From a virus (lineage: Duplodnaviria > Heunggongvirae > Uroviricota > Caudoviricetes): a stretch of 64,000 nt of DNA. Below, piece after piece: positions 322-42,037 of the stretch (positions are counted from its first letter, which is position 1; every line of letters begins with the position of its first letter). Both the position numbers and the translations under genes were made by a program. Where the stretch lies: IMG/VR virus record IMGVR_UViG_3300033069_001022, positions 26,960-90,959 of that record, one strand, 5' to 3'. The notes beneath the pieces are model-generated. The model was not told the origin of the DNA. It ran no database searches and saw only the letters and a list, made by a program, of their open reading frames with translations.

Positions 322-670
322 TTAAAACGGGAGGTTTTTGTTTTCAGGTTTCTTAAATAGTAGGTTATTATACGCACTTACTTTACGAGGTGCCCTGTTA
401 TAGAACATACGCAAGTGTAAATTTTTCCACTCAAATACCTTGTCTTTCATTCTGCGAAATGCGTTGTCAGTCCAACCAAGGCAAATCACTTTCCTTTGGT
501 ATGTGTCCTTCGTAATTTGGTTTTGAAGCCTTACCCCATTTGTCATATCGCCACGGTGGGTCAACAACAATAGTAGAATATCGTTTCAAATCCGCAACGG
601 CATATAACAAGGTATTGCCAAAATGCGGGGTTTCGTTTTCCAATTTATCTTTTGTGCTATTATCAATCAT
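322..670 (-). pseudogene. DNA N6-adenine methyltransferase (MT-A70/DPPW type) split over two frames
   Basis: ORF 467..670 contains IVVDPPWRYDKWG (DPPW catalytic motif). ORF 322..570 in another frame continues with ICLGWTDNAFRRMKDKVFEWKN (LflW-like motif). Removing one nt near ccttgg (about 468-475) fuses them as ...KESDLPGWTDNAF... Confidence 0.45.
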
Positions 671-4475: not shown

Positions 4476-4709
4476 TTAATATATTTCAGGTTCTGAAAAT
4501 CTTTGCCCCTCTATCCATTTCCCATTAATTTGTATAACTTCAACCCAATTATTACTATTCAATTCTCGTAGTATATTTTCTACAGAATAACCATTTACTC
4601 TTGATAGACCTCTGGTATCTTCACAATTAGGGTCTATTATGTATATAGCAGTACCCTGCTTACCTACTCTAAAAGTAACTCCATTTATATTATCTTTAGT
4701 ATATCTCAT
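4476..4709 (-). CDS. hypothetical protein (77 aa)
   Basis: ORF track. Confidence 0.5.
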   Translation of the reverse strand: MRYTKDNINGVTFRVGKQGTAIYIIDPNCEDTRGLSRVNGYSVENILRELNSNNWVEVIQINGKWIEGQRFSEPEIY

Positions 4710-5314
4710 ATATCTACAGCATTTCCAACCTGTTCAGATTGTTTATTAACATTTTGTTTATAAATCTCAATAAACGGCTGAAAAGATTTTTCTCTTAAGT
4801 ATCTCTCTGAATTAGGGATAAAACTTAACTGATTTTTACCTTCTTTAAAAGATAAATCTTTTGCCATTTGTATATGATACTCTGTTGCATTAATTATATC
4901 ATCAGCAGTAAAACCTTCATTGATATACTTATTAAATAACTGTCTGCACTCAGTCTTCTTTATTCTCTTACTCTGTGTACCTTTAAAAGTCTTGTTTTTA
5001 TACAGAAACATATTTGATGCAGGATAAGTCACCCACCATTTCTCAAAATCATTGGTCTTTAATTTCTTAACAATTTCTTTGGGATTCTCATCGTTTTCTA
5101 TATAAGATAATAATTCATCTCCCGACATAGTAACTTGATTATCTTCTGTTACAAGCTGTTTCCTCAATAACATCTGATTAATAGCTCCAATTTTAGGAAG
5201 AAGAATAGCATCTGTTATATCTACTTTATCTTTAATAAGTTTTAACAAGTATAATATATCCAATGAAAATCCTGCATTAAGTACTTTTATGTATTTTTCT
5301 AATGTTATATTCAT
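4706..5314 (-). CDS. hypothetical protein (202 aa)
   Basis: ORF track. Confidence 0.55.
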   Translation of the reverse strand: MNITLEKYIKVLNAGFSLDILYLLKLIKDKVDITDAILLPKIGAINQMLLRKQLVTEDNQVTMSGDELLSYIENDENPKEIVKKLKTNDFEKWWVTYPASNMFLYKNKTFKGTQSKRIKKTECRQLFNKYINEGFTADDIINATEYHIQMAKDLSFKEGKNQLSFIPNSERYLREKSFQPFIEIYKQNVNKQSEQVGNAVDI

Positions 5315-5622
5315 TTACAGGTTTTTAGTATTTTTTTCATTTTATCAACTCTAAATTGTAAGCAATCAATAATTTCAGCTTTACTAGTTACCTCATTGGG
5401 ATAAGTATGCCAATAGAAATTATCTGTTTTTTCTCTATTTACCCATGCTTTATTATATATGCTTACATTAAAATTGGCATCAGTCACAGTACATATTCCC
5501 ATTCCACAATTATGATTATCAACAATTCTAAGTATCTCTCTATAGTCTTTAACAGGTTTTATTTCACGTAAAACTAAGTTATATTTTCTAATTAGTTTTG
5601 TTAAGATTTCTTTCTTTGTCAT
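5311..5622 (-). CDS. hypothetical protein; paralog of 17656..18033 (shared C-terminal F/YRVDKMKxxL)
   Basis: ORF track. C-terminus IIDCLQFRVDKMKKILK compares with AIEALQYRVDKMKQLLEKY. Confidence 0.5.
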   Translation of the reverse strand: MTKKEILTKLIRKYNLVLREIKPVKDYREILRIVDNHNCGMGICTVTDANFNVSIYNKAWVNREKTDNFYWHTYPNEVTSKAEIIDCLQFRVDKMKKILKTCK

Positions 5623-5770
5623 AAATTAAACAATTTTATAAATTTCCTTTTATAACCACTATTATTGAACCATAAGAGTACTTCTTTTTCAGTAGTAATG
5701 TCTATATTTGGTTCAAATACAATAATGGTAGCAACTATAATAGCTATTAATATAATTAAAACTAACATGG

Positions 5771-6019
5771 TTAAATATTTTTATTCCATAAAATACCAGA
5801 AAAGGTTTTTACAGTATGTTTTTGAATAAAATTAAAATAAGCTCTGGATGGTGTATAATTATACCCACCATGTAAATTCTTTCTGATACGTTTTTTAGCA
5901 TCTTGTAATTCACAATTATTGCGATTATTGGCAAGTTTTCTAAAAAACCCAGGTTCGCCTACTTTTGGTTTAGGAAAATCTTTGTAATTAGAGGATTGAT
6001 AAACAAGTTGATATTTCAT
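5771..6019 (-). CDS. hypothetical basic protein (82 aa)
   Basis: ORF track. Confidence 0.45.
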   Translation of the reverse strand: MKYQLVYQSSNYKDFPKPKVGEPGFFRKLANNRNNCELQDAKKRIRKNLHGGYNYTPSRAYFNFIQKHTVKTFSGILWNKNI

Positions 6020-6038
6020 GGCATTAAGTTTAAATTAT

Positions 6039-6350
6039 TTAATAAATTTCATAAGCTCTTATTTGAGTGGCTTTTACGGGTCCATTATTTCTTATATAGT
6101 CCTCTATTTCATAGGATGTGGCAAATCTGACTCTCATTTTACCATGACTCTCCTTATTCTCTTCCGTGTCACTTATTGTCCAACCATTTCCTGTAGAACT
6201 GTTTAAATCTTTCTCCACACGAAAACAATTCCAATCAAAATCATCTCTTAATCGGTATACATAATCTATTGGCATACAATTTGCCCAAAGATCTATCTCA
6301 TTTATGCAGTTACTTAACAGTACTACATAATCTCCTTTAATAAATTTCAT
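6039..6350 (-). CDS. YEIY-tail small-protein family member
   Basis: Starts MKFIK. Ends ...ATSYEIEDYIRNN...RAYEIY. The junction tATGAAATTTATTAA holds the upstream gene's YEIY-stop overlapping this gene's ATG. Confidence 0.55.
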   Translation of the reverse strand: MKFIKGDYVVLLSNCINEIDLWANCMPIDYVYRLRDDFDWNCFRVEKDLNSSTGNGWTISDTEENKESHGKMRVRFATSYEIEDYIRNNGPVKATQIRAYEIY

Positions 6351-6672
6351 ATTGATAAATTTGATAGTTTAAAAAATTATCCTCTTTAAAACGACTAAAT
6401 GGTATTATTTCAAAACCATTTTTACTATAATAGTGATCATGATTATTTTCTGTATGACATAATGCTGAGCTGTGTACATCGTAAATACCTACAATATAGT
6501 TATTTCTAAGTTTAACTGGAACGGATTGTGTGACTTTTGAACATTTTAGTGCTCCAAATCTTAATTCTTCTCTGGCTTCTCCCAACATATGAATAACTTC
6601 TAGTTGTTCTTCTACTGTATTACAGTTAACTGCTACCTTATTATTAGCCACATATTCCTTAGTATATTTCAT
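6337..6672 (-). CDS. YEIY-tail family member (start trimmed to MKYTKEY; the track ORF extends to 6840)
   Basis: Ends ...YQYEIY. Its ATG lies inside the YEIY-stop of 6659..6904. Confidence 0.5.
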   Translation of the reverse strand: MKYTKEYVANNKVAVNCNTVEEQLEVIHMLGEAREELRFGALKCSKVTQSVPVKLRNNYIVGIYDVHSSALCHTENNHDHYYSKNGFEIIPFSRFKEDNFLNYQIYQYEIY

Positions 6673-6904
6673 ATTCAATAATTTCTTTTTGGTTATAAAC
6701 TTTTTTAAATTCTTCAAAAGAGATTTCTTTATAACGTCTTTGTTTTCCAAGAAATATACACTTATTATTACATAAAGGATAATGATAATAATAATAGTCA
6801 CCCTCATAGGAAGAACAAATAGAAAAATAGTTTCTTCCAATTAATTTTGTAAAGAATTTATTCATTTCTGGAATATTTCCCACTCTTTTAATACAATATT
6901 TCAT
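6659..6904 (-). CDS. YEIY-tail family member
   Basis: MKYCIKR...EIIEYEIY. Confidence 0.55.
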   Translation of the reverse strand: MKYCIKRVGNIPEMNKFFTKLIGRNYFSICSSYEGDYYYYHYPLCNNKCIFLGKQRRYKEISFEEFKKVYNQKEIIEYEIY

Positions 6905-7154
6905 ACATATTTAGTTTAAAATCTTCAAAACTACTTTTTAATCCACCTTTTACAGCCTCAAAATACTGTATTTCATGATAATCAGCCAATCTGTGGTTTG
7001 TAAAAGAAAATAATGGTTGCTTATTACCAATTTTACCATTTTTTATCCTCATAGGTACGCCCTCTATTTCTTCCTCAGAATCTTTTATGTTATAGACTAT
7101 AAAATTATCAAAACTATATTCCACAAAATAGTAAGTATTTTTAATATATTTCAT
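6888..7154 (-). CDS. YEIY-tail family member (start trimmed to MKYIKNTYY)
   Basis: Ends ...NMYEILY. Its ATG overlaps the YEIY-stop of the next gene upstream. Confidence 0.5.
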   Translation of the reverse strand: MKYIKNTYYFVEYSFDNFIVYNIKDSEEEIEGVPMRIKNGKIGNKQPLFSFTNHRLADYHEIQYFEAVKGGLKSSFEDFKLNMYEILY

Positions 7155-7406
7155 AAACAATTGCTTTATTAAATAATTTAATTTCTTCTGGTGTAGCTTC
7201 TTCAAATGTCCAATCATTTTTAAAATGATGTAATCTATTTTTACTAGGTTTTCTATATCTACCTTCACTTTGATAAATACAATCACCATAAAAAATATCT
7301 GATTTAGAAGCTTCTTTAGTAAAATGAATTACCCATCCCCATCAAAAAATCCAGAACCAAACCAGCATCTATAGTATTTTCCTATAACTAAATCAGTATA
7401 TTTCAT
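7141..7406 (-). pseudogene. YEIY-tail family member interrupted by a frameshift in a G4 run (plus-strand cccc at 7337-7340)
   Basis: MKYTDLVIGKYYRCWFGSGFFDGDG-stop, then in another frame ...WVIHFTKEASKSDIFYGDCIYQSEGRYRKPSKNRLHHFKNDWTFEEATPEEIKLFNKAIVYEIY-stop. One extra G restores a single 88-aa family member. Confidence 0.45.
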
Positions 7407-7599
7407 AACTTGTAATATTTTGAGGTATAGAAATAATTTTCCAATTTCCTGTATTTAACCTTCTCAAAGTTTCATCTATTCTCCAACCAATTGCTTCTTT
7501 ATCAAAAAATATCTTATCTTTGACAATCTTCGTTATTGTATGATTAGTTGCTATTTTTATAATAGTACCAATTACAATGTCTGTATTAGTATATTCCAT
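7393..7599 (-). CDS. YEIY-tail family member
   Basis: MEYTNTDIVIGT...NITSYEIY. Its N-terminus resembles the frameshifted neighbour (TDLVIGKYY vs TDIVIGTII). Confidence 0.55.
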   Translation of the reverse strand: MEYTNTDIVIGTIIKIATNHTITKIVKDKIFFDKEAIGWRIDETLRRLNTGNWKIISIPQNITSYEIY

Positions 7600-7840
7600 A
7601 GATATCTTCTTTATTTAAATCTGCATAATTACAATAGAACTTATAATGTAATTTCATATACTTTATATCAGTACAATAAGTTCCATCAGCAGCAATAGTA
7701 GTTTCCGGGAGTTGAAAATGAGATTTACTTAAATAGAGTGGATTAAATTCTTTCAAAAAACTCGTAAAATCATCTATATTATTAAATACAATATAGTGTT
7801 TTTCATCACTTTTAAATTCTTCAATAGATTTCATAATCAA
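7586..7840 (-). CDS. YEIY-tail family member (divergent tail ...EDIYGIY)
   Basis: ORF track; junction overlap. Confidence 0.5.
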   Translation of the reverse strand: MIMKSIEEFKSDEKHYIVFNNIDDFTSFLKEFNPLYLSKSHFQLPETTIAADGTYCTDIKYMKLHYKFYCNYADLNKEDIYGIY

Positions 7841-8096
7841 TTATTTTAATTTTTTGATATTTTCCAAATTTTTCACAAGCTTCAAGCTGTAAAATTTCTT
7901 CTTGGGTAGGTAATCTTAGATTAGAAAATAATGCTGAACCAAAAGTACTATTTTTAGCGTATCTATCTGATTCTCTAGTAAACATTGCTAATCTTGTTAA
8001 ATATTTATCACCTCCGCCAGACCTAAATATATAAGGTTCTTTTCCTTCTCCATAAGTAGTATAAATATTTCCTGGTATTAAATCTTTTAATGTCAT
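7821..8096 (-). CDS. YEIY-tail family member (KDLIPGNIY N-terminal motif, PTQEEILQLEACEKFGKY, ...DYEIY)
   Basis: Shares N-terminal and C-terminal motifs with 13462..13713, 9886..10149 and 9260..9502. Confidence 0.55.
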   Translation of the reverse strand: MTLKDLIPGNIYTTYGEGKEPYIFRSGGGDKYLTRLAMFTRESDRYAKNSTFGSALFSNLRLPTQEEILQLEACEKFGKYQKIKIIDYEIY

Positions 8097-8112
8097 GAGT
8101 GTATTATTTTAA

Positions 8113-8150
8113 AAATAATAACCCCTTACAATTAAGTAAGGGGTTATTAT
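8113..8150 (-). terminator. rho-independent terminator-like hairpin
   Basis: Perfect inverted repeat AATAACCCCTTAC/GTAAGGGGTTATT, followed on the minus strand by a T-rich run. Sits just after the stop of 8163..8630. Confidence 0.55.
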
Positions 8151-8162
8151 CAATTAAAGAAA

Positions 8163-8630
8163 TTAAGAGAAAATATCCATGATATTCCTCATACTTGCCT
8201 GGAACTTCTGTTCTCCACTCAGGTTTTCTTCCAGAAGTTTCTTAGCTTCTTTCAGTTTAGCCAGTTTAGATTCAAAAGTGGTAGCCCTGTACTGTGCTAC
8301 AATTTCTTCCTGCCATACTTTCAAACCATGGCCACCTTCAGTAAAGCCTTTCAGCTTGGTTAAAGGATCAATTGCCTGAAATACAGATGAGAATTCATCA
8401 TAAGCTGCTGCTTTCCTGCTGATAAAAGCATAGGCATCCATTAAACGGGCAGGGTCCTTAATATCGGAAACTATCCCAAATGCTCCCAAAGGGGTGGTTA
8501 TCTTAGCAGCCCTCTCTTTGTCGCCTTCCAAATCTTTAATCTTCTGATTAACTTGAGCCAATAATTCAGGTACATTTTCTAATGTAAATTGTCCTGCTGT
8601 TGCTACTTCCATGTTTTTTACTTTTGACAT
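8163..8630 (-). CDS. hypothetical protein (155 aa), Ala/Lys-rich with higher GC
   Basis: ORF track. The antisense ORF 8179..8379 is judged spurious. Confidence 0.55.
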   Translation of the reverse strand: MSKVKNMEVATAGQFTLENVPELLAQVNQKIKDLEGDKERAAKITTPLGAFGIVSDIKDPARLMDAYAFISRKAAAYDEFSSVFQAIDPLTKLKGFTEGGHGLKVWQEEIVAQYRATTFESKLAKLKEAKKLLEENLSGEQKFQASMRNIMDIFS

Positions 8631-8648
8631 TTTGTTTTGTTTTAATTA

Positions 8649-8897
8649 TTAATAATAAAATTCTTGATTTAAATTTTCATCTAATATAATTAGATCTTCT
8701 CCTATTTTATAACAATTGTTATGTCTCTTATTATCCCATAAAACTGAATAAGTAATATCATCATCATAACCATCTATAGTACCTTTAATATTTAAAGGAT
8801 TACTACTATCAGGGTCATTTGATCCATAACCAGCATATTGAGATGTAGGATTTAACAATACTCTTGTTCCAATTGGAATTTCATTTTCTTTCTTCAT
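8649..8897 (-). CDS. hypothetical small protein (ends ...QEFYY)
   Basis: ORF track. Confidence 0.5.
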   Translation of the reverse strand: MKKENEIPIGTRVLLNPTSQYAGYGSNDPDSSNPLNIKGTIDGYDDDITYSVLWDNKRHNNCYKIGEDLIILDENLNQEFYY

Positions 8898-8912
8898 ATA
8901 TGGTTTATTTGT

Positions 8913-9101
8913 TTAATATATTTCTTCAGAAGGAATTACTTTAACTTCTTCATACCATTCCTTATAATACCCATAACTACCAAAATTTCTCTCAGGAAAA
9001 GTATCTTCTGTTATATAATCTCCTTTTGTATAAGTGAAAAGAATCTCCTTATCCTTTTCATCTTTATAATCCCAGCTTTGTAATACTTTATAATATTTCA
9101 T
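8913..9101 (-). CDS. YEIY-tail family member (ends ...PSEEIY)
   Basis: MKYYKVLQ... Its ATG is in an ATGA overlap with the gene upstream. Confidence 0.5.
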   Translation of the reverse strand: MKYYKVLQSWDYKDEKDKEILFTYTKGDYITEDTFPERNFGSYGYYKEWYEEVKVIPSEEIY

Positions 9102-9273
9102 GATAACTGTTTTGTTTTAAAACCATATAGAATTTTACCTGATGTAGGTGGACTATTACTATAATATGGAACTACGTAATTTTTCCCATTATAGGACTCA
9201 ATATAAGTAATCTTACATCTTTGTCCAGCCTTAATTCTTCAGGACAAAGATAATAAAATTTAGTAGATTTCAT
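9102..9273 (-). pseudogene. small family-type gene interrupted by a frameshift at an A5 run (plus-strand ttttt at 9180-9184)
   Basis: MKSTKFYYLCPEELRLDKDVRLLILSPIMGKIT-stop; the other frame continues ...NYVVPYYSNSPPTSGKILYGFKTKQLS-stop. One extra A gives a contiguous 58-aa ORF. Its ATG sits inside the YEIY-stop of 9260..9502. Confidence 0.3.
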
Positions 9274-9502
9274 AATTAATAAATTTATCTATAGGAACAA
9301 AGTTTTTTCGTACTCTAGATATTAATAATTGTTGTAATTCTTCATTTGTTGCTTGTCTATAATGATAATATTGATAGTAAGTTAACTCTCTATCAAGGTA
9401 CACTCCTTCTGAAAGTCTTAAAAACCCATTTTCTTTATATTGAAATACCATATTATCTTGAGCAACATAACAAACATTTTCTATTAAATCAGTAGATTTC
9501 AT
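9260..9502 (-). CDS. YEIY-tail family member (MKSTDLIENV..., ATNEELQQLL, ...NYEIY)
   Basis: ORF track; conserved motifs. Confidence 0.55.
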   Translation of the reverse strand: MKSTDLIENVCYVAQDNMVFQYKENGFLRLSEGVYLDRELTYYQYYHYRQATNEELQQLLISRVRKNFVPIDKFINYEIY

Positions 9503-9722
9503 AATTAGGATTTTTTATTTCATTTATAATGTCGTAAGGACCTATATGCTCTAAGGAAAAACCATAATCACCAATATTGATATCATCTCTTTCTATTTGT
9601 TTTACAACTCCTATAAATGGGTACTTTAAAGAAAAAGGACAATTATTTATTAAGCCACTACTCCAAAAGTTAGGCTTTGTGTGAATAACTATCTGATCTC
9701 CAACCGATATCTTTCTTCTCAT
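9489..9722 (-). CDS. YEIY-tail family member (start trimmed to MRRKISVGDQ; the track ORF extends to 9761)
   Basis: Ends ...NPNYEIY. An A10 tract on the coding strand lies 3 nt upstream of the ATG. Confidence 0.45.
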   Translation of the reverse strand: MRRKISVGDQIVIHTKPNFWSSGLINNCPFSLKYPFIGVVKQIERDDINIGDYGFSLEHIGPYDIINEIKNPNYEIY

Positions 9723-9882
9723 ATATTTTTTTTTTAAAATTATATCTTTTTTCATCCTCAATTAGAGGAGGGTAATTTTTCAATAACCTATTTAATTCGG
9801 CTATTTTTTCAGAGTTAGCAGGGAACTTAGCTTGTTCCATATATATCTGTCTCTTAATCTTTTGTCTTTCTGATATATTCAT
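9670..9882 (-). CDS. hypothetical protein (70 aa); overlaps 9489..9722 in another frame
   Basis: ORF track; contains the A10 tract at 9726-9735. Confidence 0.4.
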   Translation of the reverse strand: MNISERQKIKRQIYMEQAKFPANSEKIAELNRLLKNYPPLIEDEKRYNFKKKIYEKKDIGWRSDSYSHKA

Positions 9883-9885
9883 AAG

Positions 9886-10149
9886 TTAGTATATTTCTTC
9901 TTCAGAAACAGATCTCTCTACATATCTACCTTCTCGTTTACATAACTCAAACCATAATATTTCATCTGGAGTAGCCAATCTAATATCTTTGGCTTTAGCA
10001 ATTCCGTTAAAATCTCCGGAAGCTTTATAAAATAATTTTTCTGTTATAGACAAATTATCGCAATTTCCTAAGTTTTTAGTAGCTTTAAATATATAAGTAT
10101 ATTTATTACTCCATTCAGAATAATAATATTGATCTTTAATAAATTTCAT
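9886..10149 (-). CDS. YEIY-tail family member (ATPDEILWFELCKREGRY, ...SEEEIY)
   Basis: ORF track; conserved C-terminal block. Confidence 0.55.
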   Translation of the reverse strand: MKFIKDQYYYSEWSNKYTYIFKATKNLGNCDNLSITEKLFYKASGDFNGIAKAKDIRLATPDEILWFELCKREGRYVERSVSEEEIY

Positions 10150-10387
10150 AATTAGCGTCTTTAATGTAAGGTAATAAATCTTGTTCTTTTACCATATAAT
10201 AATTACTTGCTTTATAGTTGGGACTTTCTATACAGTAATAGTAATCACCTTTAAAAGTCTTCTTTGAAAATATTTTATAAATTCCCTTTTTAAAAATTCT
10301 TAATTCATTATTTGAACTATCTAACCAATGAGAGCATCTGAATTTTAAAATTACATTTGAGAGAATTTCAATAGTATTCTGGTTCAT
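10136..10387 (-). CDS. YEIY-tail family member (...DANYEIY)
   Basis: ORF track. Confidence 0.55.
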   Translation of the reverse strand: MNQNTIEILSNVILKFRCSHWLDSSNNELRIFKKGIYKIFSKKTFKGDYYYCIESPNYKASNYYMVKEQDLLPYIKDANYEIY

Positions 10388-10688
10388 AAATTATATTTTT
10401 TATATTTGTAATACCTTTTTCAAAGGCTTGAATCTCTATATCTGTAGCAAGTCTTACTGCTTGTGTCCAAATACCACGATCATCTTCTACAGTCCAAATA
10501 ATTCTATTATTATCAGTAAAATATTTTATCTGACATACAAGTCCTTCTTCATAACCTGTGCCACCTTTTAAAAGTATTTCTTCATCTTCATCTGAATTAT
10601 TAAATCCAGGTAAACAAACAACTATATCTTTTTCTTTCATAACAATAAGTTTTAAAAACCCTCTCCCCAATAAAGGAGAGAGGGACAC
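10368..10688 (-). CDS. small protein, possible family member (ends ...EPEYY)
   Basis: ORF track. Confidence 0.5.
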   Translation of the reverse strand: MSLSPLLGRGFLKLIVMKEKDIVVCLPGFNNSDEDEEILLKGGTGYEEGLVCQIKYFTDNNRIIWTVEDDRGIWTQAVRLATDIEIQAFEKGITNIKNIIYEPEYY

Positions 10689-10690
10689 AC
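10655..10690 (-). terminator. terminator-like hairpin
   Basis: CCCTCTCCCC ... GGAGAGAGGG inverted repeat plus a T-run on the minus strand, just after the stop of 10698..11024. Confidence 0.45.
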
Positions 10691-10697
10691 TGCAAAA

Positions 10698-11024
10698 CTA
10701 ACAAACCTTATTCAAAACTGAATCAACAACCAAATATTCACCTTGTATATGAAACAAAATTACACCCTTTTGAGTAACTATCATTCCATCAGTAAGGGAA
10801 GCAAAGGAAACTGTACAGGTTCCTAGTCCCAATGCAGATAAAGGATATATAAATACAGGCAACCCCCTATCAAAACCATATTTTGGCTTAACAGCTTGAC
10901 AAAGACTCTCAATTTTTAATTTGAGATACAATTTAGGATTAATAGGATTGATAAAGAACTTATTAACTCCTTCCATAGGATTTACTTCTTTACCTTCCGT
11001 AAAGTTGAAAAACATTGTTTTCAT
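10698..11024 (-). CDS. hypothetical protein (108 aa)
   Basis: ORF track. Confidence 0.5.
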   Translation of the reverse strand: MKTMFFNFTEGKEVNPMEGVNKFFINPINPKLYLKLKIESLCQAVKPKYGFDRGLPVFIYPLSALGLGTCTVSFASLTDGMIVTQKGVILFHIQGEYLVVDSVLNKVC

Positions 11025-11039
11025 TTTTATATTTATTTA

Positions 11040-11348
11040 TTAGTGAAAAATTAAAACCCCCCTACCAAATGGTAAGGGGATTAATCCCAGTTTCGTAGGA
11101 ATTACTTCGCATTAGGCAACCATTCTCATAGCTGACCTTCTGAAGGAGATTACTCTGCCTTTTAGGTTTACTGATAATCTCTTATTACTGTTATATTGCT
11201 GTCAAAGCCGGTCAGCCCCACCATACCTTACTCAAGGGTATGGTACTTTTAAATGTACACCATGACTAAACATATGGTGGAGCTGTCGGGAATCGAACCC
11301 GAGTCCAAACAATCACCTGATAATAAGTGTCTACGACTATCATTTATT
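11040..11348 (-). ncRNA. tmRNA-like (ssrA-like) element with circularly permuted order: acceptor-like 3' piece (11275-11348), 54-nt hairpin spacer, then 5'-GGGGCUGA... piece running to a terminator (11040-11219)
   Basis: Minus strand reads ...GGACTCGGGTTCGATTCCCGACAGCTCCACCA (T-arm 5-7-5, acceptor 3' strand, encoded CCA; essentially the canonical tmRNA 3' end). After 54 nt (hairpin ccatacc/ggtatgg) comes GGGGCTGACCGGCTTTGACAGC... (the canonical tmRNA 5' start; GGGGCTG pairs with CAGCTCC including a G3:U70 wobble), ending in the hairpin CCCCTTACCA/TGGTAGGGGG plus TTTTAATTTTT. Confidence 0.4.
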
Positions 11349-11524
11349 TTAAGCTTCCTGCATAGCAGGCTCAGCTATTATTTCATAATTTACATAAGAT
11401 AAATTAAGTTCTTTTCTTAATTCATCTCCAGCTCTGAGAGCTATTTCTTCATTATGATAAGGAGTTTTAGAATCATAAACACTTTCCTTAGTTACTTTGC
11501 TTATAATTTTAAAGAAATGTTCCA
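11349..11524 (-). CDS. small hypothetical protein (58 aa) immediately upstream of the tmRNA-like element
   Basis: Manual translation MEHFFKIISKVTKESVYDSKTPYHNEEIALRAGDELRKELNLSYVNYEIIAEPAMQEA. Confidence 0.35.
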
Positions 11525-11537
11525 TGTTTAAGTAGTT

Positions 11538-11723
11538 TTAAGTGATTAATAATTCTTTTACTCTGTATATTCTATTATGGCGATCTATCCATAAAGAATG
11601 ACAATTCAAATGATTTATACCATCTTCATATATATTACGAAAATGTCTTAGTTTAAGTCTATTGGCTTTTTCTAAACTAATAATTTTAAACCACCTGATG
11701 TACCATAGTTCTATATTTCTCAT
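11538..11723 (-). CDS. hypothetical basic protein (61 aa)
   Basis: ORF track. Confidence 0.4.
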   Translation of the reverse strand: MRNIELWYIRWFKIISLEKANRLKLRHFRNIYEDGINHLNCHSLWIDRHNRIYRVKELLIT

Positions 11724-11922
11724 ATTTTAGGACATTTTACTTGCCTTAAATGTGGATGAACAGGTTTTCCCCATACCAATTTATAATTACAAGAGCTAAT
11801 CAGTAATGAAATGCATACAAATATAAATAGTTTTTTCATAATTTTAAAATTTAAAAAGGAGAAAAGATTACTCTTCTCTCCTTATATTACCACCTGAACC
11901 TATGTTTTATAGTTAAATTTGT

Positions 11923-12129
11923 TTATTCAGACTCTAAGTGATTAAAATTATACACAATTTCCTGTCCAGTTTTATCAAAAAACCTGGCATGAGACATACT
12001 TTTATCCGGTCTACGGGCTATGATTTTATCAGCACCTGCTTCAGATGTGCATCTCATTGATTCATTAACTGTTTTATACTTTGAAGGAGTAGTATCCCAG
12101 AAAGTAATAATTAAACGATTTTTTGGCAT
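11923..12129 (-). CDS. hypothetical protein (68 aa)
   Basis: ORF track. Confidence 0.45.
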   Translation of the reverse strand: MPKNRLIITFWDTTPSKYKTVNESMRCTSEAGADKIIARRPDKSMSHARFFDKTGQEIVYNFNHLESE

Positions 12130-12140
12130 GATGAATGGTT

Positions 12141-12311
12141 TAAATACGTGATTGTAAAGTGGTTATTTCTATTTTTATTCTTTTTATATCTGTATCAGAT
12201 AAAGGAATTAGACCTTCTTTAGTAGGTTTTTGACCTGTTTTTAACTGATTTTGCAGATAGTACAGAGATCTTTTTCTTCTTGAAAAAACTCCACCTGATG
12301 TTCTTTGTGCC
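12141..12311 (-). CDS. small basic hypothetical protein (about 57 aa)
   Basis: Manual translation MAQRTSGGVFSRRKRSLYYLQNQLKTGQKPTKEGLIPLSDTDIKRIKIEITTLQSRI. Confidence 0.3.
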
Positions 12312-12320
12312 ATTGGCTTC

Positions 12321-13097
12321 TTAGTTTTTAGTTAATTCGTTAAATAATTGTTGTAATTTTCCTTCTTCTTGTGTGGCTAAAACAAATTTTACCTTTTTCT
12401 CTTCAAGCCTTCCTAAAAATTTTGAATGTATTTTCTCATAATTCTTGGTAGAATTGATGAATTTAATATATTCAGAACATAAGTAATTATTTTCATACCT
12501 GTTCATCCTGGGAACTATTTTAAGAATATCTGTCAAATAATCTAGAATTTTTACTGAATCATTCTCATTGATAATCTTAAATTTACCACTTTTTATTCTT
12601 TTTGTAACAGACCCACTACTACCTACTCCACCACTCATAATTCCAGCAATGGTACTCAATTCAATGTCATATACCTGATAATAATGATTAAGTTTAACAT
12701 AATCAGGTATTAATGAAGACCAAGCTGTTATATAGTCTAACATAGACCAAGATTTTGAGGAAGCATTAAGTAAAGCAATAGTTTCTACAAGATCCTGTTT
12801 ATCCTTAATTTTAATGTCTGTATAAGGAATAGACATATTATTTCTAATCATTGCATTAAATAAATGCTGACCATCTATTATATATCTTTCTGGTTTTCCA
12901 GTAATAAAACTTATTACTGCTGTAGTAATAGGTCTTATACTTTTCATTCTATCTAATGAATAAGATAATTTAGTTACCTGAGCAGGATAAATGGATCTAT
13001 TTATACCAGCTAAGTATTTAAATCCAGTTTTTGAATTTTCTTTTAACCACTTTATATTTTTTAGTGGTTCATTTGACAACTTCATAGTTACCTCCAT
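12321..13097 (-). CDS. ParB/Srx-like or DGQHR-type nuclease-domain protein (258 aa)
   Basis: ERYIIDGQHLFNAMIRNN resembles the ParB N-terminal/DndB DGQHR motif. Confidence 0.45.
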   Translation of the reverse strand: MEVTMKLSNEPLKNIKWLKENSKTGFKYLAGINRSIYPAQVTKLSYSLDRMKSIRPITTAVISFITGKPERYIIDGQHLFNAMIRNNMSIPYTDIKIKDKQDLVETIALLNASSKSWSMLDYITAWSSLIPDYVKLNHYYQVYDIELSTIAGIMSGGVGSSGSVTKRIKSGKFKIINENDSVKILDYLTDILKIVPRMNRYENNYLCSEYIKFINSTKNYEKIHSKFLGRLEEKKVKFVLATQEEGKLQQLFNELTKN

Positions 13098-13189
13098 TGT
13101 TTTTTAGTTAATTAAAATTGGTTTATGTATATGTGTTTCTACTTCCCAAACATCACATTCAGGACAGTAGATAAGATCTGTTATCATAA

Positions 13190-13459
13190 TTAGTAAATTT
13201 CAGGTGATTCATCTAAAAACTGTATATTTTCCACTGCTATATTACTATCTTTTAGTTTTTTTAAAGTACCATTACTCATTCCCCAAGAGTTTCTGTATCC
13301 TTGCCAATCTTTCGGATAAGGATCTCCACTATATGCTGTATTATGTAATAGATAATATCTACCGCTATCATACATAATCATAGCGTTATTTGCAAAATTA
13401 CCTTTTATAGTACATGATATCTTTTTACCATGCATATCTGGTGTTAAATTTGTTATCAT
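13190..13459 (-). CDS. YEIY-tail family member (...DESPEIY)
   Basis: ORF track. Confidence 0.55.
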   Translation of the reverse strand: MITNLTPDMHGKKISCTIKGNFANNAMIMYDSGRYYLLHNTAYSGDPYPKDWQGYRNSWGMSNGTLKKLKDSNIAVENIQFLDESPEIY

Positions 13460-13461
13460 TT

Positions 13462-13713
13462 TTAATAAATTTCATATTGAAAATTAATTGCTTCTTCAGG
13501 GAATAACCTCATAACTTCTTGCATATTAGCTAATTCATAAGGACCACAAGAATTATCTATATAATCTTCTTCTTCTCTTGTTAATTGTCCATTATACATT
13601 CTAGCCTTACTGAAGTAAGTGAAATAATCATCATTCCTGGTAAATTTTATTAACCAATCATCTCCATCCATTAATTTATACCATATTCCAGGTATTAAGT
13701 CTTTTGCTTCCAT
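13462..13713 (-). CDS. YEIY-tail family member (MEAKDLIPGIWY..., ...NFQYEIY)
   Basis: N-terminal KDLIPG motif shared with 7821..8096. Confidence 0.55.
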   Translation of the reverse strand: MEAKDLIPGIWYKLMDGDDWLIKFTRNDDYFTYFSKARMYNGQLTREEEDYIDNSCGPYELANMQEVMRLFPEEAINFQYEIY

Positions 13714-13714
13714 A

Positions 13715-14062
13715 TTAATAAATTTCAGGTGAATTAAATATTATTGGAATATATTGAGGACCATCTTCTCCCTTTTTAGCAGCCCAGTATCCTTGTTTAT
13801 AAACTAAACCAATGCCTCTTCCCCACACACATAGAGTATCTGCTTTTTCATCATAATGAAATCCTTCATCTTGTATATTACTAGAAGGTAGTGACATATT
13901 TACTTTTGGACTACCTACTCTATTATTACCGTCATAAGCCATAAATTCTCCTTCTAAACAGGTAATTTTTTCCTCCTCTACATATCTTTTTCTTAAAATT
14001 TTAAGTAATTTATCAATTTTCTGTTGCATAATTTTATTTTTAGTGATCTGGATTGGATTCAA
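13715..14062 (-). CDS. YEIY-tail family member (...NSPEIY); true start may be the internal MQQKIDKL at about 14029 because the annotated 5' end overlaps the tRNA-like gene
   Basis: ORF track. Confidence 0.5.
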   Translation of the reverse strand: MNPIQITKNKIMQQKIDKLLKILRKRYVEEEKITCLEGEFMAYDGNNRVGSPKVNMSLPSSNIQDEGFHYDEKADTLCVWGRGIGLVYKQGYWAAKKGEDGPQYIPIIFNSPEIY

Positions 14063-14117
14063 ACCAATGACCCACGGTTTAGAGGACCGTTGCTCTGTTC
14101 TGCTGAGCTACCAGACC
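14044..14117 (-). tRNA. tRNA-like gene, anticodon UCU (Arg) if functional; non-canonical D-loop (no GG), C33, T-loop TTTGAAT; no encoded CCA
   Basis: Manual fold: GGTCTGG/CCAGATC acceptor (7 bp, one GU), D stem GCTC/GAGC, anticodon stem ACGGT/ACCGT with loop CCTCTAA, T stem ATTGG/CCAAT. Confidence 0.45.
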
Positions 14118-14247: not shown

Positions 14248-14283
14248 AGGTGACTCCCACCCCTTTTACAGGATGAGAGTCCA
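14248..14283 (-). promoter_or_regulatory. conserved 5'-UTR hairpin motif (copy 1): GTGACTCCCAC...ATGAGAGTCCAC
   Basis: Same architecture as 18397-18430 (stem GTGA(A)CTC, loop beginning CCAC and ending ATGA, stem GAGT(T)CAC). About 25 nt upstream of a minus-strand start. Confidence 0.4.
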
Positions 14284-33575: not shown

Positions 33576-35126
33576 ATGGGATTACAAACAATACCTGGAC
33601 TTACCGGATTAACCTATGGAAGAGTATCATCTATGGATGGTAGAGCTATTGGTAAATTAACTGATTCAAACCACTTAGAGTCTTTCCATGATCTGGCTCC
33701 TTCAGATTATGACAAGAAAATTATATCTATCTATACTCAGAGTACTTTGTATAGTAATGATTTTCTTGATATGATTAATAAAAGTACTCCTTACTACCTT
33801 GATGGTTTAAGTGATACTTGGAAATGGCAGGTAGAAATGCCTTTCAGATTTCCTAAAATCATTGATGTACCAGATAGTACTCTAAATCAGTCAACTATTG
33901 GTATTGATGGTAAAACATTTGAAATAGTTCTTGATACTATTGTATCTAAGAATATGATTATATCAGTTGGTCATAAGATGTATGGTCAAAACTTTTACAT
34001 CGCTTCTGACCCTACACAATATGGTAGGGGATGGTTACACCAGTGTACTTTAGTATCTGCTAATCCACAAGTGGATTATGTTAATCGTACTCTTTTACAA
34101 CCTGGTATTGATGTAGATCCAATTGACGTTTCTATTGGAGAATTTGACCAGGATTTGGGTGGTCTTCAAAAATTGGCTGATAAAATCACCATGTTTGAAA
34201 CATTGGGTGCAGGTTATGGTTTTGAGCATAAAATCACTGCTTGGGCAGATGATAAAATGTTAAAAGACGAGAATGGTAAACCAAAAGATATTATGGTTTA
34301 CATGCAGAATAGAAGGGGTGAAACAGCTACTACTCGTAATGACATTAAATGGGAACCATTTATTGAGTTTATGATGAGGAAGCAAATGCTGGAAACCAAA
34401 GTTAAGCGTATGATCTGGTCTAAACCAGGTATAGTTAGGACTCATGGTGCAAAGCAAGAACTTAAAAAAGTATCCGCAGGTGTGTATTACAGAATGCGTA
34501 ATTCTGGTAACTATGTACCTTATAATAGGGGAGAACTCTCTGCGAATTTAATTCGTAACGTATTTGGTGATTTGTTTTATCGTAGGGTTGATGTAAAAGA
34601 CCGTAGGGTTAAGATGTACACCAATGAAGCAGGTTTTGACGCATTCCAACAAGCAATTAAAGAAGACGCTTTCAATAGTGGATTAACATTTAATGTTGGT
34701 GATAATGATAAATTTGTTAATGGTAATGGCCAACACCTTCAGCTTAACTTCGCATTTGATTCTTTTGTAACAAGGGAAACTGGTAAAGTGGAACTTGTTC
34801 ACCTGAAAGAATTGGATTTACCTCAAACAAATTTGGAATTTGGACAGAATAAAAAATCAACCCCTATATTTATGGTGTTTGATGTTTCTCCAACTTCAGA
34901 TGGTTCACTGGTAAACAATATCAGAGAAGTTCGTAGGTCTGGTACTCCTAACATGCAGTGGGGTTATATTGATGGTCGTAGGAGTCACTTAGGAGCTTTT
35001 AAATCTCAAGGTTTTAATGCAGCTAATAAATTTCCTGGATACGAAATCTGGATGGAAGACCGTTCAGATGTATTCATCGAAGATCTTAGTCGTTGTGTTC
35101 TTATAGAGGAACTACCTCAGTTTTAA
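33576..35126 (+). CDS. putative major capsid protein (516 aa)
   Basis: Size and position after the scaffold-like gene. Strong double hairpin terminator downstream. Confidence 0.5.
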   Translation: MGLQTIPGLTGLTYGRVSSMDGRAIGKLTDSNHLESFHDLAPSDYDKKIISIYTQSTLYSNDFLDMINKSTPYYLDGLSDTWKWQVEMPFRFPKIIDVPDSTLNQSTIGIDGKTFEIVLDTIVSKNMIISVGHKMYGQNFYIASDPTQYGRGWLHQCTLVSANPQVDYVNRTLLQPGIDVDPIDVSIGEFDQDLGGLQKLADKITMFETLGAGYGFEHKITAWADDKMLKDENGKPKDIMVYMQNRRGETATTRNDIKWEPFIEFMMRKQMLETKVKRMIWSKPGIVRTHGAKQELKKVSAGVYYRMRNSGNYVPYNRGELSANLIRNVFGDLFYRRVDVKDRRVKMYTNEAGFDAFQQAIKEDAFNSGLTFNVGDNDKFVNGNGQHLQLNFAFDSFVTRETGKVELVHLKELDLPQTNLEFGQNKKSTPIFMVFDVSPTSDGSLVNNIREVRRSGTPNMQWGYIDGRRSHLGAFKSQGFNAANKFPGYEIWMEDRSDVFIEDLSRCVLIEELPQF

Positions 35127-36940: not shown

Positions 36941-38080
36941 ATGAGTGAATTTTCTTTAACAACCGTATTTGTAGTTCCAGTAGGAAATACTTTACCTGCC
37001 TCTGGTGGTACAGAATCATTAGCTGATGGTGTTTTTAGCATCAGAAAAGATGAAGCCAGGACTATTGCAAATAATGGTAATATTGCTACAGCCAAATTTA
37101 TACAATTCTTTCAGGGTAGGGACTCCAGTTTAAACTTAGGTTCTAAACCATCAGACAGGATTAAAGCCTCTAAGGTAAAACGCTGGTATAAAGTAACAGG
37201 ATCAGCTACGGCTGTAAATGAAATTTGGCAAGTTTCTGATTTTAGAGCAAAGTGTGGTGAAGATGTAACTTTTACTCTTCGTGGACACTCAGCTTATATG
37301 GATACTATTTCATATAACGGTTTAACAAGGTCAGTAACTGTAAAAGCACCATGTTGTGAATGTGGAGAAGATCCTTGTACAGATGTAGATAATGAAGCTT
37401 TGATTGATTTAATCATAGCAAAAATCTCAACAACTGCTGCTGTACAAAATGGAACTGCTTCTCTTACATTAAGTTCTTTCTTTAATTTCTCTAAATCAGG
37501 AACAGGAGCAGACGCAGTATTACTGGTAGAGTCCAAACCTCTTACAGTATATGGTCAACCATGTGATTTAGCTATTAATCCATACCTTTTTGACCGTGTT
37601 TGGTTCAGGGTTTGGGTAAGTAATGGCCCAGCAACAACTGTTGATTTTGAAGTGTATGATGGTTGTGATATCACTGCTACAACTACCTTGCTTCAGCGTA
37701 GCTCATTCCCTCAGTTAACTTCCAAAGAAGTTGCTCAAATGGAACTTGATTATTATTCTTATCAGTCTCCATATAAGCATCTGTATAGAATGAGTGGTTA
37801 TAACCCATACTTCCAGAGCTATGTAACTGATGGTGAGATTTATGACCAATACGTTATTCAGTTTGATGAGTATAATCAAAATGATTCTTTTGTAGCTAAT
37901 TTGAAAGAAGACGAAAAAGTAATTTTGTATATTCCTCAAGGAGAGACTTCTACCATAGAAACTATGTTAGTAACTTATCTTGGAGCTATAGAAGATTCTT
38001 CTTCAACTGGACCGACTACAACTACTACAACTAGTACAACCAGTACTTCTACTACAACTACAACTACTCTAATCCCTTAA
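36941..38080 (+). CDS. Cys-containing structural protein with C-terminal poly-Thr tail (...PTTTTTTSTTSTSTTTTTTLIP)
   Basis: ORF track. Tail encoded by ACTACAACT-type repeats at 38014-38068. Confidence 0.5.
   Translation: MSEFSLTTVFVVPVGNTLPASGGTESLADGVFSIRKDEARTIANNGNIATAKFIQFFQGRDSSLNLGSKPSDRIKASKVKRWYKVTGSATAVNEIWQVSDFRAKCGEDVTFTLRGHSAYMDTISYNGLTRSVTVKAPCCECGEDPCTDVDNEALIDLIIAKISTTAAVQNGTASLTLSSFFNFSKSGTGADAVLLVESKPLTVYGQPCDLAINPYLFDRVWFRVWVSNGPATTVDFEVYDGCDITATTTLLQRSSFPQLTSKEVAQMELDYYSYQSPYKHLYRMSGYNPYFQSYVTDGEIYDQYVIQFDEYNQNDSFVANLKEDEKVILYIPQGETSTIETMLVTYLGAIEDSSSTGPTTTTTTSTTSTSTTTTTTLIP
38014..38068 (+). repeat. poly-Thr-encoding ACTAC(A/T)AC nucleotide repeat (copy 1 of 3)
   Basis: Near-identical tracts at 39094-39153 and 41993-42025. 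Confidence 0.7.
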
Positions 38081-40471: not shown

Positions 40472-42037
40472 ATGTCTTGTCCAGATTGTTCATCAACACT
40501 TCCTTTAACATTTGATATTCAAGCATTTGTGAACAACAGTTGCTCAGAATGTCAGCAACAAAACTGTTTACCTGTAAAATATTTATGTTATACAGGTCCT
40601 GCATTACCTTGTTCTGGAATAGTTACTGGTGATACATTAGAAGTTGCTCTTCAAAAAATTGATGAACAAATCTGTTCAGCAACAGGAGATTACTCTGCTT
40701 ATCAGTTTAATTGCTTACCAACTTGGTGGGGAGAAGCTATAACAAGTGAAGCTGAATTTGTTGATGCTATTACTTTATATGCTTGTGAAATAACTGATAA
40801 TCTTCAGACATTCACAGGTGTAACTTTTCCAGCATATCAATCTGAAGTTGAAGCCCAACTAGATGATATAACTGGACCATCTTTAACATGTACTTCGGCA
40901 GGAGTTACCAGTGTTGATAGTCTATACACTGTTTTAACTAAATATTGTACTAAATTCGGAAGTATAGACACAGCTCTTGATATATCTTCTGTAACATGGA
41001 ATAGTTGTTTTACAGTAGTAAGTCCCCCAACTACAATTGCTGGGGGTTTTAATGAACTTATTACGCAAATATGTGCTGTTAAAACATTAGCAAGTTCTGC
41101 TGCTGTTTTACCTACTTTTAATAACAGTCTAAACTGTTTAGCTGGAACAACTGCTGATACCCTGGTTGAAACTATAGGACTATTAACTGATAAAGTTTGT
41201 GAACCATTCCCTTTTGATCCCTCTCTTATTACATGGGACTGTCTGGATGATACAGCAACTGATTTACAAGAGGCTGTAGAAGTGATTGTAGATGAGGTAA
41301 ATGTAATTAAAAAAGGTCTGATTACAGCAGTATCTGCGGATTTTGTTCTATCACAAACAGATCCAATGGATGCATGTGCAGGATTAACCATAGAACTTGC
41401 TACACCACTAGTAAACAGTGATAGGTTGGTAGCTAGTAATGTATCTGATTTAAGTCCTGGTACTCTTATAGATAAGCTTACAGCAGGTACTAATATTACT
41501 CTGGATGATACCACAACTCCAGGACAAGTTATTATAAATGCAGATAATGACCATTTATTAATTGCTGGTCCAGGGGATGCAAACCCTAATACCTTAATAG
41601 AGAAATTAAATGGAGATACAGAGTCAGGTATAGCAATTACACCTACTTATAATGCTTTTACTGAACAAGTTGATTTAGATTTAACGATAGACCTTCAATC
41701 TTTTCTATCTACCGCTATGACTTTCATAGCTAGTAGTCCTGCTTTACTTGCTCAATTCTGTGCTTTAGTAAGCTCTTGTGGAGCAACTTGTGCTACATTT
41801 GTATACACTATATTTAATGACTCAGGTTCTGATCAAGGTATAACTTGGTTACAATGTGGTAATGCTACCCCAATCGAGATTAACTTACCAAATGGCGACA
41901 CTATTCAAGTATGTGCTGTTCAGGATAGTGTGACTGCCCCAGTTGGGGTTGTAGTTACTCTGGGAGATGCTTGTAGTATAAGTGAAGTACCTACCACAAC
42001 AACTAGTACCACAACTACAACAACATTAAGCCCTTAA
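40472..42037 (+). CDS. Cys-rich Ser/Thr-rich structural protein (521 aa) ending in a poly-Thr tail (...PTTTTSTTTTTTLSP)
   Basis: ORF track. The 225-aa antisense ORF is judged spurious. Confidence 0.5.
   Translation: MSCPDCSSTLPLTFDIQAFVNNSCSECQQQNCLPVKYLCYTGPALPCSGIVTGDTLEVALQKIDEQICSATGDYSAYQFNCLPTWWGEAITSEAEFVDAITLYACEITDNLQTFTGVTFPAYQSEVEAQLDDITGPSLTCTSAGVTSVDSLYTVLTKYCTKFGSIDTALDISSVTWNSCFTVVSPPTTIAGGFNELITQICAVKTLASSAAVLPTFNNSLNCLAGTTADTLVETIGLLTDKVCEPFPFDPSLITWDCLDDTATDLQEAVEVIVDEVNVIKKGLITAVSADFVLSQTDPMDACAGLTIELATPLVNSDRLVASNVSDLSPGTLIDKLTAGTNITLDDTTTPGQVIINADNDHLLIAGPGDANPNTLIEKLNGDTESGIAITPTYNAFTEQVDLDLTIDLQSFLSTAMTFIASSPALLAQFCALVSSCGATCATFVYTIFNDSGSDQGITWLQCGNATPIEINLPNGDTIQVCAVQDSVTAPVGVVVTLGDACSISEVPTTTTSTTTTTTLSP
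41993..42025 (+). repeat. poly-Thr-encoding repeat (copy 3 of 3)
   Basis: Seen directly. Confidence 0.7.

Follow-up and report, generated by a model that had tools for sequence, protein, structure and literature searches.

A conserved YEIY-type C-terminal peptide on small early-region proteins of an uncultured phage with a crAss-type capsid

We analyzed a stretch of 64,000 nucleotides (nt), hereafter the window, covering positions 26,960 to 90,959 of the IMG/VR record IMGVR_UViG_3300033069_001022. The window is part of an uncultured, AT-rich, crAss-like phage (~30% G+C) and holds an array of small minus-strand genes whose products share a C-terminal end of the type YEIY, which we call the tail. 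The junction between successive genes of this array comprises the end of one gene and often the beginning of the gene that follows; purifying selection conserves it as a peptide and not as a nucleotide signal.

The common end of the array proteins

Around 19 small early-region genes of the window carry the tail, 15 of them ending in EIY and four in the variants EPEYY, QEFYY, YGIY and YEILY; the orthologs of the YGIY and YEILY genes end in YEIY. The pattern GAAATHTAYTRA was found 15 times in the window compared to 0.63 times in shuffled sequence, and all 15 matches are located on the minus strand, from 4476 to 13726, in frame at the end of an open reading frame (ORF). EIY followed by a stop codon ends 15 of the 31 minus-strand genes between 4.4 and 14.1 kb (binomial P = 2e-41 given the amino-acid composition), and EIY inside these genes was seen once, with 1.5 occurrences expected. 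The pattern of YEIY ends is far beyond chance. A dense minus-strand array with a common end and overlapping starts had been described in the original prediction, and this description was confirmed, although its range of 6039 to 14062 was not: a further tailed gene (4476-4709) lies outside it, and the limit at 14062 belongs to a TTG-extended ORF, the ATG at 14029 being the start that is conserved among orthologs. Literature searches returned no description of a YEIY-type motif in phages and none that pairs 'YEIY' with 'phage', and nothing relevant was found on C-terminal motifs of crAss-like early proteins.

The tail set comprised 138 distinct tailed ORFs, drawn from 14 loci (the window and 13 related ones). 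Its consensus is Tyr (79%), Pro or Glu at position -4, followed by Glu, by Ile (84%) or Leu (13%), and by a final Tyr (96%) or Phe. Ile was encoded by ATA (60), ATT (39) and ATC (17), Leu by five different codons, and the final Tyr by TAT (81) and TAC (51). All three stop codons occurred, TAA or TGA in the window and additionally TAG in related loci. Tyr at position -4 was TAT in 80 and TAC in 29 tails, a TAT share of 73% compared to 84% genome-wide, and the wobble-position diversity of the tail matched or exceeded the background codon diversity. When 74 ortholog pairs were compared, the four tail codons showed 65 synonymous and 37 non-synonymous differences, versus 80 synonymous and 418 non-synonymous differences in the ten codons just upstream (odds ratio 9; Fisher P = 2e-21, to be read with the shared phylogeny of the pairs in mind). 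The variable nucleotides of the junction are silent in the upstream frame and amino-acid-changing in the downstream frame, which encodes MK[F/Y/S][I/T]K. Moreover, the tail is retained at junctions that have no embedded ATG; these have CCT or GAA (window) or TAC (related loci) as the -4 codon, and the next start follows 1-3 nt past the stop.

Nucleotide conservation independent of the reading frame was not found at the junction, where variation is seen only at wobble positions of the upstream gene. The fixed nucleotide junction that had been proposed was therefore not upheld, since the exact sequence TATGAAATTTATTAA occurs at only a few junctions and every wobble position varies. The embedded ATG exists because Tyr-Glu is nearly always written TAT-GAA in this AT-rich genome; it is not selected for itself. 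We also considered programmed frameshifting or hopping at the junction but rejected it: AAATTTA occurs in the ATT variant, though in neither gene's frame, the ATA and ATC variants are not slippery, and the downstream frame differs among junction types. For genome scans, a repeat that resembled a DNA signal and proved to be a protein motif is a reason for caution.

With the tails removed, the 138 proteins fell into 57 BLAST clusters, and profile-profile comparison by hhalign arranged the 17 clusters with at least three members into 14 groups; within the window only a few protein pairs reached E < 1e-3. Judged by these comparisons, the tail is carried by many unrelated protein families. The array had been taken for at least 17 diverged paralogs; homology outside the tail did not unite its members into a single paralogous family, and at least 14 profile-distinct families were present across the 14 loci. 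One superfamily, the largest family (GxYYY...RLATxEEIxWLExCxKxGKYV), does unite about 5-8 genes of the window, and the (K/T)DL(I/V)(P/I)G..Y and (T/S)xEEIL..E.C...G.Y blocks that had been reported as shared are present in these ~5-8 members (DLIPG...RLATxEEI...C...G.Y) but not in the rest. It had also been considered that the likeness might be limited to a tail produced by a shared regulatory sequence, with no common fold; the likeness is indeed largely limited to the tail, but the tail is a selected peptide and not a by-product of a regulatory sequence.

A Pfam search of the array members gave no match, and PHROGs returned only families of unknown function, significant (E <= 0.001) only for the protein encoded at 8649-8897. 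The AlphaFold2 model of the protein encoded at 7821-8096 (predicted local distance difference test, pLDDT, 79.8; predicted template modelling score 0.73) consists of a small beta-barrel and one helix (residues 65-77). Residues 78-91 are modelled as coil, with the last five (87-91, DYEIY) below a pLDDT of 50; in this model the tail is a flexible extension outside the fold. A fold search with the model gave only weak Sm- or SH3-like small-barrel matches, with E values of ~0.1 or worse.

Split and fused forms and their distribution

An HMMER profile of the largest family (cluster 0) retrieved 1,143 cluster representatives, and tails and architectures were counted in the best 144 of these. Sixty-one of the 144 are single-domain proteins of 130 amino acids (aa) or fewer, at least 38 of them with the canonical tail; most remaining single-domain homologs have variant ends such as YQIW, YSIF and YELW, with E, D, S or Q at position -3 in the various lineages. 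Multidomain proteins make up the other 83; they are ~130-1,100 aa long, except for one of 5,137 aa, and contain several copies of the domain. A tail-like end was found in one of these 83, and YEIY-like words were almost absent inside them, with 2 in a total of 50,813 residues. Profile hidden Markov models (HMMs) of 11 of the 17 tailed clusters with at least three members also match multidomain proteins retrieved by the cluster-0 profile. Single multidomain proteins combine up to four tailed clusters, e.g., P0054 with the order c0-c0-c1-c10-c3, and the long homologs contain 2-8 copies or kinds of array domains. One 596-aa protein includes homologs of two window genes, 7821-8096 and 13190-13459, in separate parts of its sequence. 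The fused-protein loci L071 (41% G+C) and L084 (29% G+C) contain no tailed genes, and a Pfam search of ten long homologs returned nothing. By these counts and profile matches, the array is the split form of a combinatorial multidomain family, with the tail belonging to the split form. Because the same domains are fused elsewhere (the Rosetta-stone argument), the separate tailed proteins probably function together.

The close relatives L011, L013, L015 and L016 encode 12-19 tailed genes each, and the more distant L068, L069 and L070 encode 11-23, with 23 of 58 ORFs tailed in L069, where YELY occurs beside YEIY. Very distant contigs of 91-175 kb (L018/L025, L019, L023 and L049) carry YEIY, YEIF, FEIF and YDIF, the last one twice in L049 on neighboring genes that are unrelated; the FEIF of a distant lineage is written TTTGAAATATTT. 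L072 has PVINNxYSII three times and YSIT, on unrelated neighboring genes and with different codons, and L080 has YDLW twice, again on unrelated neighboring genes. Backbone-only relatives (L001-L008), whose ParB-like protein is ~60% identical, have neither tails nor tailed families. As judged from these sequences, such concerted change of the tail across non-homologous proteins is what co-evolution with one tail reader would produce. Larger proteins encoded downstream of the arrays in L068 (13460-14704, 414 aa) and L069 (14741-16564, 607 aa) end in K-I-Y-F and K-I-L-F, respectively, which are hydrophobic, aromatic and somewhat tail-like.

Junctions, cassettes and gene content of the array

At 11 junctions of the window the ATG of the next gene lies inside the Tyr-Glu codons (TATGAA), giving overlaps of 14-20 nt, and independent gene callers chose identical embedded starts. 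The window junctions that lack an embedded ATG have the next start 1-20 nt past the stop; in the related loci ~40 of 56 such junctions have the next ATG 1-3 nt past the stop. Starts thus overlap the stop or lie a few nucleotides from it, which is the geometry of stop/start coupling, and the overlapping junctions probably mediate translational coupling. The proposal of an ATG embedded in the junction accordingly held for 11 junctions, at which it is used as the next start, but not for several others; the proposal that the junction acts as a coupling signal is plausible as far as the embedded ATG serves as the next start, but the nucleotide sequence is not what is conserved.

A comparison of array membership and order across related genomes had been suggested, and the gene-order maps of the relatives did reveal differences of whole cassettes. 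L011 reads ...gatatATGAAATATAC[gene]aattATGAGATATACTAAAG..., where the window has only ...gatatATGAGATATACTAAAG...; the window is without one L011 gene, and the gap falls exactly between ATGAAATATAC and ATGAGATATAC, which implies a clean loss or gain between two junction copies. The homolog of the L011 gene missing there sits elsewhere in the window, at 6337-6672. When L013 was compared with L011, two genes were missing between two copies of TATGAAATATATTAAAGG. Indel breakpoints inside the repeated junction were resolved to the nucleotide in these two cases, in agreement with the suggested cassette-recombination site, but recombination was refuted as the reason for the conservation. Cassette gain and loss at the junction are real by-products of the conserved peptide, and translational coupling is probably another. 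In L013, the apparently non-coding positions 10741-10904 hold the decayed remains of a tailed gene's 3' end, which reads ...PINVNYEIC-stop and has Cys in place of Tyr; it follows that tailed cassettes also decay in place.

Promoter-like sites numbered 78 compared to 66 expected, and hairpins were not located at junctions. G+C-rich terminator-like hairpins with T runs were found 12 times in the region compared to 3.3 expected; those on the minus strand at 10659-10684, 11055-11082, 11856-11883 and 14252-14281 bracket an untailed block that extends from the ParB-like gene to a transfer-messenger RNA (tmRNA) gene. By their positions, the hairpins appear to split the array into separate transcription units. 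The tmRNA gene (11112-11327, minus strand; Rfam RF04321, 65.4 bits with a gathering score of 47) is of the permuted two-piece type and occupies the gap that divides the array in two. Its acceptor stem pairs perfectly over 7 bp (GGGGCUG with CAGCUCC), the gene has a CCA end, and ARAGORN makes no call; the end of its predicted tag frame seems to be ...SAMRMVA-stop. An exact search with the tmRNA T-arm for a host matched only unrelated Actinobacteria.

All array genes lie on the minus strand and are described here from the upstream edge, which is marked by a tRNA-Arg gene (anticodon TCT; 14043-14117, minus strand) that overlaps the TTG-extended ORF. The first tailed gene (13715..14029; 104 aa, MQQKIDKLLK...NSPEIY) belongs to family 3, its orthologs in L011, L013 and L015 all end in SPEIY, and the next ATG lies 1 nt past its stop. 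It is followed by 13462..13713 (83 aa, MEAKDLIPG...FQYEIY), which belongs to the beta-barrel plus helix superfamily, hhalign linking its cluster 5 to cluster 0; its orthologs end in PEIY, so that position -4 alternates between Tyr and Pro. The gene at 13190..13459 (89 aa, ...ESPEIY) is homologous to residues 342-417 of P0045, the fused 596-aa protein mentioned above. Beyond the untailed block, the variant-tail gene 10368..10640 (90 aa, ...YEPEYY) has the next ATG embedded with a 20-nt overlap, and all of its orthologs end in E[PS]EYY. The genes at 10136..10387 (83 aa, ...NYEIY), which overlaps the next gene by 14 nt, and at 9886..10149 (87 aa, MKFIKDQYYY...EEEIY), a member of cluster 0, follow. 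The gene at 9489..9722 (77 aa, ...NYEIY, TGA stop; cluster 6) is SH3-like in sequence and overlaps the next gene by 14 nt. The ORFs 9670-9882 and 9489-9761 (minus strand) overlap by ~50-90 nt, depending on the start chosen, and this overlap is also kept in relatives (L011 11204-11377 and 11325-11597). Another member of cluster 0 is encoded at 9260..9502 (80 aa, MKSTDLIEN...NYEIY), and the gene at 8913..9101 (62 aa, ...SEEIY) has the next ATG 15 nt past its stop. We regard 8649..8897 (82 aa), which has the PHROG matches, as a borderline member; it ends in QEFYY, and the EFYY end is conserved in orthologs.

Downstream of an untailed gene at 8163..8630, which is discussed below, the array continues with 7821..8096 (91 aa, MTLKDLIPG...DYEIY), the member modelled with AlphaFold2, and with the variant-tail gene 7586..7834 (82 aa, ...IYGIY), whose orthologs in L015 and L016 end in SYEIY, Glu being replaced by Gly here. 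The gene at 7393..7599 (68 aa, ...SYEIY) has a TGA stop. A tailed gene with a 1-nt deletion (MKYTDLVIGKYY.../...VYEIY) lies at 7141..7406 and has intact orthologs (P0010; L015 9751-10020). The deletion was also found in two other assemblies (L009 and L010), so the lesion is not a sequencing error peculiar to the window. A programmed frameshift in this gene was rejected, as there is no convincing slippery site and the lesion is a 1-nt deletion relative to the orthologs. The variant-tail gene 6888..7154 (88 aa, ...MYEILY, with one extra codon) overlaps the next gene by 17 nt and is followed by 6659..6904 (81 aa, ...EYEIY; cluster 1), by 6337..6672 (111 aa, MKYTKEYVANN...QYEIY), whose homolog stands at a different position in L011, and by the last gene of the run, 6039..6350 (103 aa, MKFIKGDYVV...AYEIY). 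The separate tailed gene at 4476..4709 (77 aa, MRYTKDNING...EPEIY) starts with ATGAGATATACTAA, a remnant junction. Still further downstream, a small ORF at 322-546 (minus strand) ends in ...NLPF, which recalls the SSB C-terminal tip (DDLPF-type), and an ORF in the fused-protein locus L071 ends in ...KDDLPF.

GC skew and ORF orientation divide the window into the minus-strand small-gene block (1 to ~21 kb) and a following plus-strand structural block. The latter encodes a crAss-type major capsid protein at 33576-35126 (PF23898 Crass_capsid, E = 5e-26), for which the nearest match among GenBank phages was a Leptolyngbya phage (25% identical). Two proteins of the structural module, encoded on the plus strand at 36941-38080 and 40472-42037, have near-identical poly-threonine ends (...STTTTTTLIP and ...STTTTTTLSP). 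Megablast of the array region and tblastn of two array proteins against GenBank phages gave no match. One metagenome of the Joint Genome Institute (JGI) and one public sequencing run contain near-identical contigs; one array protein, searched against viral contigs, gave no match.

Possible roles of the tail and comparison with known systems

We propose, at about even odds, that the tail serves as a C-terminal docking tag through which the separate modules assemble on a partner common to all. Each single-domain module would dock via [Y/P/E]-E-[I/L]-Y-COOH onto one common partner, and docking would recreate non-covalently the multidomain proteins that are fused in other phages. At the DNA level, the TAT-GAA of the tail yields the ATG and hence the downstream start, the 14-nt overlaps and probably translational coupling, and the 12-18-nt junction repeated at gene boundaries offers microhomology for in-frame deletion, insertion and movement of cassettes.

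The most plausible partner, although this is a guess, would be the untailed, all-helical 155-aa protein encoded at 8163..8630 (minus strand; AlphaFold2 pLDDT 77), which is highly conserved and co-occurs with tailed arrays. The HMM of its family matched 11 of 11 tail-bearing loci or locus groups with enough flanking DNA, and four of these lineages had been found via the tail or a tailed family and not via the 155-aa protein; no match was found in ~50 tail-less loci or in the fused-protein loci L071 and L084. Viral and metagenome contig searches with this family returned only contigs already included here and none that was new. The protein is 98% identical to its counterparts in L015 and L016, where the flanking small genes are far more diverged and many are unalignable; comparison of these sequences points to either very strong constraint or recent exchange. 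Searches of the PDB gave no sequence or fold match, and a BFVD fold search with the model returned only uncharacterised phage proteins. We name the 155-aa protein as the tail's candidate partner, but tentatively, and the guess is more likely wrong than right. The same doubt applies to the wider picture of a plug-in tag, in which dozens of interchangeable modules would be set on a 155-aa hub in variable combinations and the DNA of the tag would double as an in-frame recombination joint.

Several points weigh against docking and against this partner. Related phages share ancestry and gene order, and this could account for the association of the tail with the 155-aa protein without a functional link. 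L068-L070 were retrieved through the 155-aa protein, and their support for the link is one-directional. The absence of the 155-aa family from fused-protein loci was seen in two loci only (L071 and L084). Furthermore, the ortholog pairs and the tails are phylogenetically non-independent, so that the P values given above overstate significance, even though the contrast is still large. Constraint at the level of the peptide would also be expected equally from a degron or from an effect of the nascent chain on the ribosome.

A degron or stability tag, by which a host or phage protease or adaptor would read YEIY-COOH and set a common short or protected lifetime, would account for the peptide-level conservation of a flexible, exposed tail common to many unrelated proteins, and the lineage-specific variants could track the host protease. 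Precedents for C-terminal tags include the LAA ends of the ssrA type, the C-terminal tag by which FtsH recognizes lambda CII and the C-terminus by which Lon recognizes SulA. The tail is unlike known C-degrons, however; it ends in E-I-Y and not in (A/V)-L-A-A or a similar non-polar end of the ssrA type. The lack of such an end in fused homologs (1/83 has it) would be odd if timed turnover of the domains mattered, the co-occurrence with the 155-aa protein is left unexplained, and we consider this role rather unlikely. The tail might instead act in translation: the last residues of the nascent chain or the termination context would help the ribosome to stay on and to re-initiate at the ATG next to or inside the tail, and the split modules would thereby be expressed together in an operon that lacks Shine-Dalgarno sites. 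Almost all tailed genes have a start codon close by, either embedded 11 nt upstream of the stop or 1-3 nt downstream of it, the tail codons fill the upstream space so that no Shine-Dalgarno-like sequence is possible before those starts, and the tail goes with the split architecture. Yet untailed genes of the same arrays are equally tightly packed, the start position relative to the tail ranges from -20 to +20 nt, and the sharing of YSII and of YDLW within their respective genomes is explained more easily by co-evolution with a partner. We know of no precedent for nascent-peptide-dependent re-initiation in bacteria, which also counts against this explanation, and we hold it to be quite unlikely.

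Mimicry of a host hub-binding peptide, either the beta-clamp-binding motif (consensus QL[SD]LF) or a class III PDZ ligand ([DE]-x-hydrophobic-COOH), would tether the proteins to a host machine. The tail follows the pattern of a hydrophobic, an acidic or Ser, an aliphatic and an aromatic residue with a free carboxylate (compare N-Y-E-I-Y and N-Y-D-L-W), Asn ranks with Glu and Ser among the most frequent residues at -5 (N 26, E 26 and S 22 of 138), E, D, S or Q occupies -3 in the various lineages, and the tail is both terminal and flexible. Positions 2-5 of QL[SD]LF are physico-chemically similar to the tail (Y, E/D/S, I/L, Y/F/W) and position 1 is variable; the defining Gln is not conserved. 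As fused homologs are without the motif and it is hard to see why ~20 different proteins of one phage would need the same host hub, we find such mimicry decidedly unlikely. Lastly, the junction might be kept mainly as a DNA recombination linker, with the peptide as by-product. The whole-cassette differences among relatives, the breakpoints in the junction (window versus L011 and L013 versus L011) and the occurrence of one family at different positions in the window and L011 are in line with such a cassette site. As the sole cause it is contradicted by the wobble positions, which are free while the amino acids are kept, and by distant lineages that keep the peptide with quite different nucleotides (FEIF, YELY and YSII); selection for recombination only would let non-synonymous changes accumulate as fast as synonymous ones. 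A DNA linker as the main reason for the conservation is thus highly improbable.

If the wider picture of a plug-in tag proves true, one element of 12-15 nt would couple protein assembly, co-translation and cassette exchange. A four-residue tag on a large share of one phage's early proteins is also an experimental handle, as a single peptide pull-down could find the partner and reveal the role of the set as a whole. In crAss-like and other uncultured phages, small genes without an assigned function are in the majority, and the domain family described here, with 1,143 cluster representatives, is large, uncatalogued and absent from Pfam. The array offers a natural example of gene splitting, a multidomain family present as separate genes with a common end, which bears on how the variable gene sets of phages are assembled and reshuffled.

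Shared C-terminal docking peptides are known from encapsulin cargo-loading peptides, the SSB C-terminal tip, clamp-binding motifs and the T4 capsid-targeting sequence. As in these systems, the tail consists of a few terminal residues on a flexible extension of otherwise unrelated carriers, and the known peptides direct their carriers to one partner. It differs in sequence, in its carriers, small early-region proteins that number in the dozens within one phage group, and in being tied to a split and not a fused architecture. The array also resembles ATGA/TAATG coupling in that stops and starts overlap or lie 1-3 nt apart along it; here, however, the commonest form is a 14-nt overlap that arises from Tyr-Glu, and the upstream peptide is conserved, not the spacing.

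The PeSLs of T4-type phages are mobile regulatory cassettes, intergenic composites of an early promoter and a stem-loop (PMC2839356, PMC4122927). Like these, the junction is a short conserved motif repeated at the borders of variable small early genes (PMC2839356, PMC4122927), and breakpoints of indels or replacements between relatives fall in the motif, here in two cases. In contrast to PeSLs, the repeat is a coding sequence of 12-18 nt in which a gene end overlaps the next start, the combination of promoter and stem-loop is absent as neither a promoter nor a hairpin lies at the junction, and the peptide is conserved, not the nucleotides. The junction behaves like the linker sequences of modular phage evolution, from which it differs in being coding sequence that owes its conservation to the peptide. 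Polyvalent proteins, encoded by phages and conjugative elements, contain small domains strung along one long polypeptide, and related elements encode such domains as solo genes side by side (PMC5512222). The array domains likewise occur strung together or as solo genes; however, no known polyvalent domain (MPTase, ART, methylase and others) was detected by the Pfam search of the ten long homologs, and a terminal tag common to the solo versions is not described for polyvalent proteins.

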